A stretch of DNA of 64,000 nt, taken from the NCBI RefSeq assembly GCF_053078305.1, contig NZ_CP166879.1. One strand, written 5' to 3'. A program made the position numbers. This document shows, piece by piece, positions 47,701 through 53,700 of the stretch. Within the stretch, counting starts at the first letter, position 1. Each line of letters begins with the position of its first letter.

Positions 47701-50700
47701 CCTGGCTGGTCGGGATTTTACTGGATACGTTTTGTTAACGCGGCAGGAGTGAAAGGTCCATGGAATGCTGAAAAAGGCACTCAGGCACAAACACAGATCG
47801 GCGTGAAGGCCATCATTGACCAGATCCGCGATGAGGCTGCAAAGTCACCGGTTGTGTCCGAGCTGCGTAAAGAAATAAAAAACGCGCAGGGGCAGGCTGT
47901 AAAGGATGCTGCAATTAAGACAACCGAAGTTGTGGGGACTCTCAGGGAAGAAACGACAAGAACGATTGGTGGTATTGAAACCCGCATTAGCACACTGGAT
48001 TCGTCAACCAGTGAATCGCTTAATGAGGTCGACAAGCGCATCACTAAACTGGATAAAGAAGGCGGTGAGGCGTTTCTGGCAATGTGGTCAAAAAAAGCGG
48101 GAGTTGATGGTATCACTGCGGGGATCGGGATTGTCGCCGGAAAAGACAGTGAAGGCAGGCCTGTAAGTCAGGTTGCAATTTCTGCGTCGCAGTTGTTTGT
48201 CTTTGACCCGAACAACCCGGATAACACCGCCTATCCGTTTGCGGTATCAGGTGGCAAGGTTGTGATCCCGAAAGCGATGATTTATGACGCGGTGATTGAA
48301 ACACTGGTGTCGCGGAAGGTTGTGGCGGATGAAGTAAAAGCCGGGGTAAGTATCACTTCGCCAGTTATCCGGAGTGCCGTTATTCAGAATGGAAACTTTC
48401 AGGTTGATTCTCAGGGTAACCTGAATATTGGAGGCCTTTTCAGTGTTACGTCACAAGGGCAACTGACAATTCGTTACTCTAATCAGAATGTAGGACTGGT
48501 AATCCGCAATGATAAAATTGAGGTTTATGACCAGAATGGACGACTGGCTGTTCGCATAGGCAGATTACGCTGATCAGGAGGTGAGTATTGGAATACGGTT
48601 TTGCCATTTATAACAGAAATAACGTTAATGTTACGGGCGTGCTGACTCCGGTATTTTTCCTGGACAGATTTACAGCGGAGTCTGGCTCAAAGACGTACAC
48701 GAATAAACCCGACGGGAAATCATTGCAGGCTGTATGTTGTTTATTTCCCTGGAATAATGTATTTGCGGATCGGAAAGTACCGAAGATAACCATTAATGGC
48801 AATACGGTGACGTGGTCGAATCTTGAGCAGGGTATGGGATCTTATATTTATACATTCTGGGGATAAGTGTCATGTATGGTTTGAGCATTATGAAGCCGGA
48901 TGGCAGCGTATGGATAAGTCCAGGTTTTACGCCGCAGTGTCTGATCAACAAAGGCACCATACCGGCGACGGAAAAGTCTTTTTTTAAAACATCAATCCCG
49001 TCAGGCAAAAGTTGTTTTTTCTTTATCAGAACAGAGAAGAAGGCTGATGTCATGTACACGCATGAACAGATTGATGGATATCATGCACTAAGGCTTCATG
49101 TAATTGTCAGGGGAACGAACCCTGGTGTTACGACGGTTTATGCTTTCGCGAATATGGTTACTCCACCTTCTGAGTATGGTATCGCCATGTATAACCCGGA
49201 CGGTGAGATGATTTATCATGGCGAAATGATGCTGCTTGACGCGAAGTTGATACCTGTTGACGTCGGATTCGAAAAGGACCTTGGGTATCCATGTGCAATT
49301 ATGCCGGCACTGGTGGGGTATCATAGCCAGTATGTAGCACCTTATTATCAACCGATTTACACCACATCCACCTGTGCTACAGGAAATAAAATATATTCCT
49401 GTGAACATTATTCTGGTGCTGCCTCATGGTCTAACTTTTCCAGATATATAGATAAGGTACTGGTTATTAATGCATCAATGTATGATTGATAAGAAAACCT
49501 ATATTAATAAAAACTTTTTATCAGAACAATACAATATATTTGATTTATATTTATATTAAATAAAGGTAAATCGTACATTACTGTACCTTTTAATAACAGG
49601 AATAATCTAAAAATGAAAAATATTTATAAGATTATTGCGTGTGCAGTTATTGGGACGAGCATGGTAGCCATGCCAGCACATGCAGCAGAAGGAGACCATA
49701 CAATTTCTCTGGGGTATGCGCACTTTCAGTTTCCGGGACTGAAGGATTTTGTAAAGGATGCGACTGCTCATAACAGGGAGACTTTCAGTCATTTCGTCAA
49801 CAGAAACTACTTTTCTTCATTGGGCGAATATACAGATGGTCGGGTCAGTGGATATGAAGGCAAGGATAAAAATCCACAGGGCATTAATATCAGGTATCGC
49901 TACGAGATAACGGATGATTTTGGCGTTATCACCTCTTTTACATGGACGCGTTCTCTCACTAACTCACAGACATTTATTGATGTGCAGTCAGCCGATCATA
50001 GCAGGAAGATTAAGAATCCGGCAGCTTCTGCCAGAACGGATATCAGGGCGAATTACTGGAGTCTGTTAGCGGGGCCTTCATGGCGGGTTAATCAGTACAT
50101 GAGTTTATATGCGATGGCAGGGATGGGCGTTGCTAAAGTTAGCGCTGACCTGAAAATTAAGGACAATATTAACAGTAGTGGCGGATTTTCTGAAAGCAAC
50201 AGCACGAAAAAAACCTCCCTTGCGTGGGCTGCAGGTGCACAGTTTAACCTGAATGAGAGTGTTACACTGGATGTGGCTTACGAAGGTTCCGGCTCTGGCG
50301 ACTGGCGCACGAGTGGCGTTACTGCTGGCATTGGCCTGAAATTCTGACCTGTATCCGGTAACCGTTTACTACCCGCTGTGATGGCGGGTTTTTTATTGCC
50401 CGTACAGGGCAAAAACCGTAAATTATGCGTGGGTGCCTTTCGGCTGATGGCTGGAGGGAGAACCTGAAGGCCTGATGTGGAAAGGCCCCGAGTCAACTTT
50501 AACGTTAACCCGAGGCCCTGACCGTACAACCTTCACAAGTAGTAGGTTAGCGCCTCTCCATTCAGGAGACAAGCGTTATGTCGCAAAAATCGCTCATCAC
50601 CGTCACAATTTGTATGACGGTTATCTTCACCATCTGGATGTTACACGGCTCGTTGTGTGAGTTCCGGCTGAATTTGTGGGGAGCGGAGTTTGCGGCGTTC

Positions 50701-53700
50701 TTACAGTGTAAGCAGTAGGAAAACCGCGACGGGGATGAAAGTCCCCGTCAACTGGTTGCTGAGGTTCAGCCGATATGGCACCCGTTTCAGGTGAGAGAAT
50801 GAACGATAAAATTCTCCGGTATATGCAGCGTGTGGTGAGAAATTCCCGCAACCCTGAATTTATGAATGAAGTTAAAGACGCCTGCCTTAAAAAGCAGGCG
50901 TTTTGTTTTGAGGCACCTGATGGCTTTCTGGTGCTGCGTTCTGTGCTCAGTGACGATGGTATCCCTTATGTTCTGGTGTTGCTGGGCGTGTGTACGGGGA
51001 GTAACAGCGTTGAGCGTTATCTGCCGGAGGTGAAGACATTAACCCGTCTGGCTGGCGGACGCTGGGCTGAATTTCATACGGCAAGGCGGGGATTTATCCG
51101 GCTGGGAAAACGTCTGGGCTTTGAGCGAATGCCGGATGATGAGGATGGCTTCATGGTGTTCAGGATAGCGGTCTGACTGCTACAGTTTTCATCATTGTGT
51201 TTAAACCAACATTGTAATTCACATTCTGACCCTGCTCCGGCAGGGTTTTTTGTTATCCAGGGGGCCATTATGGGTGGAAGTAAAGGCGGTGGTGATACCA
51301 AAGTAAAACCAACAGCAGCGCAAATAGCACAGGAAGAAGTGGCCTGGAAAGGGTGGCAGGATTATCAAAAAATCCTCCGTCCGGCAGAAGATAACTTCAT
51401 GGAAAAGGTCGATGACCTTAACAGTGAGCAGCAGTACGAAAATATCGCCGGTACAACAAATCTGGGATATCAGAAACAGTTTGGTGAAACGCGAAGGGAG
51501 CTGGCGGGTAATCTTGCTCAGTCCGGCGTTGACCCATCCAGTGGTCGTTTTAATGCGGTAATGGATGCAAATCAAAGCGACCAGGTGACCGGGCAGATTG
51601 ACACAACCACACGGGGACAGGTGTCGCAGGCAGATAAATATATTGCCGGGCTACAGGATGTTGCAGCTCTCGGTTCTGGTCAGAAGGCGGATGCGTTACA
51701 GAGTTTTAACTCTCTGGCAGACAGCAGTCTGGCAAAAGCTAAATCGGATGCACAGGCGGCGTTTACGAAACAGCAGGGTCGAGCCTCTCTTGTTGGCGCT
51801 GGTCTGGGTGCGGCAGGTGCATATGCGATGCATAAGGCTGGCGGTAGCGGAGGAAGTGGCGGTGCTAAAACACCTGGCACCGGCGCTAATGCCATTCAGT
51901 ATCAGGCTCAGAACTGGAGACTGTGATTATGGAGTACGGTAAATACGAAACACTTGCGAGATACGGTTATACCGGAGCAGCCCGCCCTCAGGGGGACTGG
52001 CAGACATCCGCAGCGCTGACCCGCCAGCAATACGACGACTGGCGCACCAGATATTTACCCCGTGTAGCAAGGCTGGCTGACCTTGGCGAGAACAACAGCC
52101 TGATGAATGCACAGCTTGCCCGGGTGGGCGGCCTTGCCACTTCCAGTCTCCGTACAGCGCAGATGGCGCAGGATAACCAGATGGCGAGATACGGGGTAAG
52201 CCGCCCGGATAATCCCGACAGTAATACGCTGGGGTTACGTAATGCCCTGGCAATAGCAGGTGCGAAAAATGGTATCCGTGAAGCCGAACAGGATCGCCAG
52301 ATGAATATTCTGACGGGGGCTTCTGCACCGGCAAGACAGAAACTGAGTGTTGGCGGACAACTGGTGGCAGCGTAAGGGGGCAATATGGGATACGGTTTAC
52401 TGGATATTGCAAATCAGTCGCGGCGTGAGGCATTACAGGGAATAAGTGACGCAGACAGACGACGTACAGAGATTGAGGCATCAAATAAACAACTGGCTGC
52501 TCAACAGAAAGCTCAGAAAAAACAGAATATCGGTACGGGCATTGGTACGGGGGCGGCTATTGGCGCATCCGTTGGTGGTCCTGTTGGCGCTGTTGCTGGT
52601 GCAGTAATTGGCGGCATTGCAGGCGCTTTGTTTTAAGGAGTGGTGAATGAGCGGATTTGCACAGGGGTTACTTGCCGGATTCAGCACTGTTGACCAGGCA
52701 ATGACCCGTCGTAAGGAGCTTGGTTTGCGAGAAGCACAGCTTGCTCAGCAACAGAAAAATAACGAGCGCGATTTTGAATTTGCGCAGTCTCAGTTTGAGC
52801 ACCGAAAAGAAAATGATCAGCGTACATATGATCTTAATGTCAGGAATGCCGATCGTGAATATGCGCTGAAAGAGAGGGAACACAAAGCAGCGCAGAATTA
52901 TCGAAATGCGTCACTTGGGCTATCTCAGCAGAGACTGCAACTGGAAAAATACAACCAGCGACGGCTTGAGTATAACGATATGCTGGCGCGCGATCAGCCT
53001 GTGATGGCGGCGCTGGGAAAAGCGATTGATGCGGGTGACCATGATGCGGCTTCTCATCTGTTCGGTAAATTATCGGACGCCAATCCGCTTAAGATGATGT
53101 CAACGGAAGGCTATGCTGCGAAAGCGGGTCAGGCCGTGAACAACCTGCAGAAAATCCTTGATGATAAGCCGGACAGGGCGATCGATTCGCTGAATACCCC
53201 GGAAACTCTCGATATGCTTTCCGGCGTGTTTGCCCCGGAACTACAACAGCGTATTGGCATGCCTGATTCAACCGGGGAAAAAACGATAAAAGAGGCCAGG
53301 ATTGGCAGTATCGTACCGGCGCAGCAGGAAGGGTACGTACTTATTGGCCTTGATCTCACATACAGCGATGGCTCCACCGCGCATAAACCTGTAACAGAAT
53401 ACGGCAGTGCGCACCCTGATGATCAAACCGTGCTGGCGATACCCGTTGATAAGGCTATCGCTCAGGTCAGGGATCGCAGCAAATTTGCAGAGATATCGAA
53501 AAATTATGGTTATTTTATGCCGAAGCAGCAGGGACTTTCTCTGAAAGAGCTTCAGAAGGGGGCCAGCAACGTAGCGGCGGACGCGATCAAGAATGGCGGT
53601 AATGCACAGGCTGCGGTGGATGAATATTATGCTGCGACTGGTTCACAACCGCATCAACAGAAAATTCAGCAACAAAAACTTCAGCAACAGGTTATCAACT

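Follow-up and report, generated by a model that had tools for sequence, protein, structure and literature searches.

The window analysed here is a stretch of 64,000 nucleotides (nt) from contig NZ_CP166879.1 of the NCBI RefSeq assembly GCF_053078305.1. It belongs to an Escherichia coli chromosome (99.4% identity across the yfaP-yfaQ region) and carries a 933W-like short-tailed prophage, with the integrase gene at 9482-10771 on the minus strand and a late region that shares 96-97% identity with Stx-converting phages. A toxin gene of the Hok/Gef family lies in the late region, 3' of the lom homologue. The segment around it, about 50395-50783, is very probably a complete hok/sok-type type I toxin-antitoxin (TA) cassette, and a second paralogue in the prophage beside hokW-sokW. 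Its features and those adjoining it are as follows.

49613-50347: lom homologue (phrog_108).
50371-50395, plus strand: lom terminator, a hairpin (50371-50389) and a T-run, found as a terminator-like site in the scan.
50396-50424, plus strand: predicted hok promoter, read by eye, with -35 TTGCCC (50396-50401), a 17-nt spacer and -10 TAAATT (50419-50424).
50431-50783, plus strand: predicted hok mRNA of ~353 nt; the alignment to Rfam RF01794 begins at its 5' GGGUGCC, and its 3' end is GGCACCC.
50431-50447, plus strand: tac-like 5' element, with the fbi-like 3' element (full-length RNA) or 50479-50489 (3'-shortened RNA) as partner.
50475-50660, plus strand: upstream 'mok-like' open reading frame (ORF), 61 codons in the window; its AUG and GAAGG Shine-Dalgarno sequence are invariant in homologues.
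50480-50537, minus strand: predicted Sok-like RNA, with a variable unpaired 5' tail of ~20 nt, a 14-bp hairpin (50517 to 50484) and UUUCC.
50487-50507, minus strand: equivalent of the phage phi24B RNA 24B_1, comprising the loop and 3' arm of the Sok-like hairpin; 21 nt here, owing to a 1-nt loop insertion.
50544-50572, minus strand: Sok-like promoter, with -35 TTGTCT (50572 to 50567), a 17-nt spacer and -10 TAACCT (50549 to 50544).
50564-50568, plus strand: hok Shine-Dalgarno sequence AGGAG, 9 nt 5' of the AUG, predicted to pair with CUCC at 50556-50559.
50578-50718, plus strand: hok-family toxin gene, 46 codons and a stop; one transmembrane helix; C12, T14, L26-C27-E28, E37 and C44.
50728-50749, plus strand: hairpin of 9 bp with a GNRA-type (GAAA) loop in the 3' untranslated region, after the hok stop codon.
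50766-50783, plus strand: fbi-like 3' element, UCAGCCGA...GGCACCC, complementary to the 5' end of the mRNA.

The 46-codon ORF that the initial annotation had placed at 50578-50718 is present; it starts with ATG and encodes the peptide that had been given, of 46 amino acids (aa) (MSQKSLITVTICMTVIFTIWMLHGSLCEFRLNLWGAEFAAFLQCKQ). Its proposed membership of the Hok family is borne out by matches to Pfam PF01848 HOK_GEF (independent E-value 4.7e-8, residues 8-44 against model positions 6-42 of 42) and, over the full length, to PHROG phrog_251 'MokW-like host killing' (E 2.8e-24), a resemblance which the homology search shows not to be due to chance. The same peptide is a translated coding sequence in O157:H7 strain TR01 (WP_000078907.1, 'Hok/Gef family protein') and is encoded in 933W and phi24B DNA. 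The peptide had also been called closest to HokA. HokA (NF007290) is indeed the top-scoring NCBIfam model, and the SLCE...EFAAFL.CK pattern at the C-terminus is shared with HokA of E. coli K-12; however, the score of 38.4 bits is far under the cutoff of 89 bits, so the HokA equivalog was rejected, and the genomic context also differs. A single transmembrane helix is found at about residues 5-22, with Kyte-Doolittle values in 15-residue windows that peak at 2.25 (residues 5-20) and are below 0.7 after residue 18. The hydrophobic N-terminal helix and polar C-terminal part, within 46 aa, agree with the ~50-aa layout of Hok/Gef proteins. Seven residues are conserved in >80% of 1264 Hok peptides (M1, C16, T18, L30, C31, E32 and E41; bioRxiv 10.1101/2025.08.07.668861). 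All seven are present here with order and spacing kept (M1, C12, T14, L26, C27, E28 and E37), and C44 corresponds to the C/Y position 48 of the family, as judged by eye and not from the authors' alignment.

Of 18 homologues, 17 have an ORF of 46 codons, the exception being E. albertii with 47, while aa identity to the window peptide goes down to 21/46. The median pairwise ratio of nonsynonymous to synonymous substitution rates (dN/dS) among the homologues is 0.32, and the comparison of the window with the 933W gene gives dN = 0 at dS = 0.245. The dN/dS values and the kept length indicate purifying selection on the hok ORF, and thus a gene maintained by selection. The hok Shine-Dalgarno sequence has a mean probability of being unpaired of 0.2-0.3 on RNA folding, and a CUCC or CUCU anti-Shine-Dalgarno sequence is found in all homologues.

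Out of 5426 complete E. coli genomes, ~1750 carry the cassette, which is ~390 bp long and occurs in four mobile contexts. In 933W-like prophages it follows lom, and in P2-like prophages it follows ogr at the prophage end; other prophages have it between gpJ and a tail-fibre gene, and the fourth context is an O157 island, near the ure genes. Similarity across the contexts begins at the -35 hexamer of the hok promoter and ends directly past GGCACCC at 50783, and homologues at 74-84% identity span exactly 50411-50783. As this similarity begins only 3' of the lom terminator, the terminator is part of the context, outside the cassette, which it shields from lom transcription. The boundaries suggest that the post-lom unit moves as a mobile cassette, from promoter to 3' element. 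The 46-aa subfamily is found in E. coli, Shigella, Salmonella, E. albertii and Citrobacter, the Shigella and Salmonella members having come from a protein search. An exact-pattern scan with one genome per species gave four loci, the pattern being too strict to define a taxonomic range: E. albertii, a Citrobacter metagenome-assembled genome (MAG), and short contigs labelled Collinsella and Xanthomonas. The last two, a Collinsella sp. MAG contig (3371 nt) and a Xanthomonas pisi contig (857 nt), carry the hok cassette in its E. coli form, the encoded peptides being identical or nearly so, and are most likely contamination of the assemblies by enterobacterial or phage DNA.

Both promoters of the cassette were identified by hand and are backed by conservation. 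In the putative hok promoter, which scores 8/12 under a scan threshold of 9/12, -35 TTGC and -10 TAnATT are kept in all seven sequences from three contexts. Counted from the predicted start at G50431 to the hok AUG, the leader is 147 nt long. At the gathering threshold no Rfam family matches at the locus; below it, 50431-50588 aligns over the full length of RF01794 (sok/hok-leader) with 36.5 bits against a gathering score of 59 (E 1.2e-6, 601 nt searched). The 360-nt RNA folds at -147.7 kcal/mol (z = -5.76), and none of 100 shuffles is as good, in agreement with the long structured leader that had been described. In the minimum free energy fold of the full-length RNA, 50431-37 pair with 50783-77 and 50440-47 with 50773-66. 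This closure of the 5' end on the 3' end is seen in 89.5% of cells across the 18 homologues, compared with 26-50% when the partner is slid. No two-sided (compensatory) changes in this pairing occur among the homologues because the 5' partner is invariant; the changes are one-sided and wobble-compatible. RNAalifold favours an alternative local hairpin with the 5' end on 50479-89, and RNAs truncated at 50745-50765 refold to the 5' hairpin plus a hairpin at 50515-53, with the loop 50531-38 open. This closure followed by refolding mirrors the tac/fbi/ucb folding pathway of R1 hok, which was reportedly described in work of the Gerdes laboratory. The hairpin that had been noted after the stop codon was recovered at 50728-50749 with 9 bp, of which two pairs are changed on both sides, in 4 and 9 homologue sequences.

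A search for an antisense promoter and RNA, which the initial annotation had called for, gave a promoter at 50572 to 50544 and a hairpin at 50517 to 50484, matching a promoter and RNA reported from phi24B. The layout of its boxes and spacer is that of R1 sok and sokW. The -10 hexamer and the TTG of the -35 hexamer are invariant in 18/18 homologues, as are the sense-strand AGGTTAGCGCCTC and CAAG over the promoter; the scan overlooks it because the -10 matches the consensus at only 3/6 positions. The ends given for the Sok-like RNA are putative, and extension to ~50458 is possible, which would resemble the predicted phi24B transcript of 80 nt. Its hairpin has -24.1 kcal/mol, versus -11.2 kcal/mol for the sense complement, a strand asymmetry due to three G-U pairs that turn into A-C mismatches on the plus strand. 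The minus-strand hairpin is ~5-13 kcal/mol more stable in 17/17 distinct homologues, with three different upper-stem sequences; since the MAFFT/RNAalifold alignment was poor at the hairpin tip, each sequence was folded on both strands instead. The 5' tail, which complements the loop predicted for the target hairpin, lies in the least conserved segment of the cassette (66% mean identity). Such a variable tail fits a specificity determinant preventing cross-talk of paralogous hok/sok pairs.

The phi24B RNA in question, 24B_1, has been portrayed in published work as a microRNA of prokaryotes that resembles those of herpesviruses. It is a 20-nt RNA with 2223 reads from the minus strand of HM208303 (45711-45692), between lom and vb_24B_43 (Nejman-Falenczyk 2015, PMC4426718). 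Its promoter, p24B_1, has -35 TTGACT and -10 CGCTAACCT, and an 80-nt precursor was predicted, for which a product was obtained by reverse transcription PCR (RT-PCR) (PMC4426718). Hfq binds the precursor with a dissociation constant of 25 nM (PMC4426718, PMC10732415). The window and phi24B are 97% identical over 50340-50800, and by alignment p24B_1 is the same element as the Sok-like promoter, with -10 CGCTAACCT identical and -35 TTGTCT in place of TTGACT. The 24B_1 coordinates read UAACGUUAAGUUGACUCGGG on the phi24B minus strand; the mapping relies on these coordinates and on the promoter boxes, because the sequence string is not printed in the text of PMC4426718 or PMC10732415. The published 24B_1 primers map uniquely in the window. 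DNA, strand and promoter position are thus the same, and the 20-mer lies within the Sok-like hairpin, although the window version has a 1-nt insertion and the literature describes a trans-acting, microRNA-like regulator (PMC4426718, PMC10732415). None of the words hok, sok and antitoxin occurs in PMC4426718, its sequel of 2023 (PMC10732415) or a review from 2025 (PMC12197685), and full-text searches for 24B_1 with hok or antitoxin, of incomplete literature coverage, gave only a 2017 mini-review that treats the topics separately. By position and sequence, the antisense RNA of the cassette appears to be the 24B_1 of the literature, which would most simply be a stable fragment (loop and 3' arm) of the Sok-like hairpin.

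The most likely function of the cassette, by analogy with known systems, is that of a type I TA module which would act once antisense synthesis stops. A moderately good promoter would yield the ~353-nt hok mRNA from near G50431. In silico folding and conservation suggest that its 5' end (50431-47) closes on its 3' end (50766-83), with the Shine-Dalgarno sequence in a small local hairpin, and by analogy with R1 hok this full-length RNA would be translationally silent. Slow 3' trimming would then free the 5' end to pair with 50479-89, and the target hairpin at 50515-53 would form with its loop exposed, as predicted in silico. From the TTGTCT-17-TAACCT promoter a short, unstable antisense RNA would be made, its 5' tail unpaired and its terminal hairpin very stable; conservation and strand asymmetry argue for the promoter and hairpin, and a transcript is reported in phi24B. 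This RNA would pair with the mRNA at 50480-50537 and the duplex would be destroyed, probably by RNase III, by analogy with R1 and hokW. When antisense synthesis ceases through prophage loss, transcription shut-off or induction, the remaining mRNA would be translated, and the 46-aa peptide, if it behaves as its relatives do, would enter the inner membrane and collapse the membrane potential. Candidate roles are prophage retention, lysis timing at induction (as shown for hokW-sokW) and abortive infection.

Several points weigh against this reading of the cassette. A consensus promoter scan of 50300-50900 returned nothing, both promoters being just under the thresholds. The ends of the hok transcript are predicted ones, the RF01794 score is under the gathering threshold, and the case for the 5'-3' pairing comes from conservation, not from covariation. 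Only three U residues follow the Sok-like hairpin, which makes a weak intrinsic terminator. The antisense target ends ~27 nt 5' of the hok Shine-Dalgarno sequence, which in a cassette that lacks a conserved mok leaves a block of translation unexplained. The phi24B RNA was seen after induction only, not in uninduced lysogens (PMC4426718), which runs opposite to a constitutive antitoxin, and the phi24B RT-PCR may have lacked strand specificity. No published toxicity or antitoxin test of the lom-side paralogue was found in the literature.

The ORF at 50475-50660, which had been reported as a longer frame positioned like mok, is real, with 61 codons overlapping hok. A canonical hok/mok/sok arrangement, in which this frame is a true mok, blocked by the antisense RNA and coupled to hok translation, is nevertheless unlikely. 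Open in the window and overlapping the hok start, the frame stands in the same relation to hok as in R1 (hok = mok + 1); its AUG and GAAGG are invariant in 18/18 homologues at a fixed +44/45 from the 5' end, and the predicted antisense RNA ends ~5 nt 3' of the AUG at 50475. The invariance of the AUG region is, however, also explained by its location in the conserved 5' hairpin, and an open frame of 61 codons is ~5% likely in random sequence by a rough estimate. Among the 18 homologues the frame varies from 1 to 79 codons and reaches hok in only four (the window, one P2-like copy, VTB97432v and E. albertii). It stops after 1-25 codons in the other 14, including the closest Stx-phage relatives and an O157 copy of 96.5% identity: eight codons in 933W, phi24B, O157 TR01 and the O157 island copy, 17-25 in eight further homologues, and one in the gpJ-context copies. 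Eight of the 18 have no frame from ATG, GTG, TTG or CTG that reaches hok. Furthermore, the frame starts 5' of the Sok-target hairpin; R1 mok starts inside it. As its length is not kept, the frame is not accepted as a conserved mok. In a subfamily lacking a conserved mok, hok is probably translated from its own AGGAG, and antisense control would then work via mRNA decay or refolding and not via translational coupling. In E. coli 88-3493 and 09A19CPO009, whose copies lie between gpJ and the tail-fibre gene, a stop codon comes directly after the invariant upstream AUG (AUG UGA), and this start-stop ORF might still load ribosomes on the leader.

Alternatively, a trans-acting 24B_1 that affects phage lysogeny and host metabolism could be the relevant product, with the hok ORF incidental or silent. 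When the region is deleted, phi24B lysogenises less, is induced faster and yields more progeny; extra copies promote lysogeny, and the 20-mer pairs weakly in vitro with sdhB mRNA (PMC4426718, PMC10732415). However, the published deletion (189 nt) maps to window 50380-50566. Lost with it are one half of the lom terminator, the promoter and entire leader of hok, the antisense gene and some of the hok Shine-Dalgarno sequence, and the primers for the 'overproduction' plasmid pUC18_24B1 span 50268-50831, the entire cassette including hok. With so many parts of the cassette covered, neither experiment isolates the 20-mer. Given also the purifying selection on the hok ORF and the movement of the cassette as a unit in non-Stx contexts, we regard an exclusive 24B_1 role as improbable, although the regulator and TA-cassette views are not mutually exclusive. 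A decayed, non-functional remnant, as with several chromosomal hok loci of E. coli K-12, is highly improbable. Inactive hok copies are common on chromosomes (Fozo 2010), the locus scores under the Rfam threshold and the neighbouring hokW in the window is frameshifted, but the lom-side ORF is intact, with a good Shine-Dalgarno sequence and no amino acid change from 933W at the synonymous divergence given above, and the promoters, both mRNA ends and the antisense hairpin are kept in the 18 homologues and four contexts. Within the preferred reading, that of a type I TA cassette, we tentatively propose that 24B_1 may derive, as a stable fragment, from the Sok-type antitoxin RNA that a second, mok-less hok/sok cassette encodes, that the deletion and plasmid phenotypes may be at least partly due to removal or over-dosing of a whole TA module and not to a trans-acting 20-mer, and that the subfamily may show Sok control of Hok in which coupling through mok plays no part.

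The cassette resembles hok/mok/sok (parB) of plasmid R1 in its single-helix Hok/Gef toxin, long structured leader, complementary mRNA ends and alternative 5' hairpin. The cis-antisense gene is also alike, with its -35 adjoining the hok Shine-Dalgarno sequence, its -10 in the descending arm of the target hairpin, and an RNA made up of an unpaired 5' tail and a terminal hairpin. It differs in peptide length (46 aa versus 52), in the missing conserved mok frame (4/18), in the leader score of only 36.5 bits on the Rfam model of R1-like leaders, and in its residence in prophage accessory ('moron') positions.

Experiments have established the hokW-sokW module of Sp5/933W as a type I TA system, which becomes active when the prophage is induced and raises phage release twofold (Takada et al. 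2021, PMC8621323). The module belongs to the same phage type and family as the lom-side cassette and has an identical antisense -10 (TAACCT), but it lies in the early region (window ~22776-23101, with hokW at 22945-23101), whereas the lom-side cassette lies in the late region. HokW has 51 aa and is 37% identical to the lom-side peptide over 35 aa. The 933W record annotates mokW, hokW and sokW, and RF01794 scores 97.6 bits at that locus. The possibility that the lom-side locus is hokW-sokW itself was rejected on the primers and peptide of Takada 2021 and the 933W annotation; the lom-side locus is not mentioned in PMC8621323. Compared with the 933W gene, hokW in the window has one additional T (22970-22971), and past codon 9 its reading frame is shifted. 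From the sequence, HokW thus looks inactivated while the lom-side hok is intact; the extra T could be a sequencing error in a T run. Directly 3' of hokW is a perfect tandem array of the heptamer GACCAGC (23285-24128, 120.6 copies, 100% matches). It yields long artefactual ORFs on both strands (23176-24195 and 23229-24149), is unusual for a phage early region, and is possibly an assembly artefact.

The gene at 50799-51176 (homologue of L0129 and vb_24B_43; phrog_610, unknown function) begins 16 nt past the predicted 3' element of the hok mRNA. As there is no intrinsic terminator between the two, hok transcripts may read into it. Elsewhere in the window, an STnc100 small RNA match (27719-27930, 167.6 bits) is the sole feature at the usual stx site. 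933W-type phages carry tRNA genes and stxAB at the position corresponding to this part of the window. No plus-strand ORF of at least 90 aa and no tRNA gene was found in 27360-28034 or 26000-28500, and the prophage therefore looks stx-negative there. Two naRNA4 elements (REP/BIME-type) at 8587-8777 lie just outside the integrase end of the prophage and probably show where, downstream of yfaP-yfaQ, chromosome and prophage meet.

The description of the locus as unannotated is true of the original 933W and phi24B GenBank records; RefSeq/PGAP and several phage records, however, name the gene as 'Hok/Gef family protein', 'small toxic polypeptide' or 'MokW-like host killing'. Fourteen Hok/Gef genes had already been counted in O157 Sakai (Fozo et al. 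2010), and a 2026 preprint catalogues 32,532 hok loci, prophage-enriched, with Mok and Sok explicitly left unanalysed. The system is thus of a known kind and the gene already catalogued, so that as a gene call little changes. What is added is that the locus is distinct from hokW, that a conserved mok is lacking, and that the antisense RNA is apparently identical with 24B_1.

Stx-type phages carry two different hok/sok modules, of which only hokW-sokW has been studied. With two modules, and with hokW frameshifted and the lom-side copy intact in the window, work on 'the' hok/sok must name the copy. The work on 24B_1 appears to concern the antisense RNA of this cassette without saying so; the link offers a simpler, testable origin for 24B_1 and makes it necessary to control for the effects of the toxin and of the small RNA separately. 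The subfamily, which by prediction keeps all hok/sok RNA elements but mok, would be a natural test case for uncoupled Sok action.

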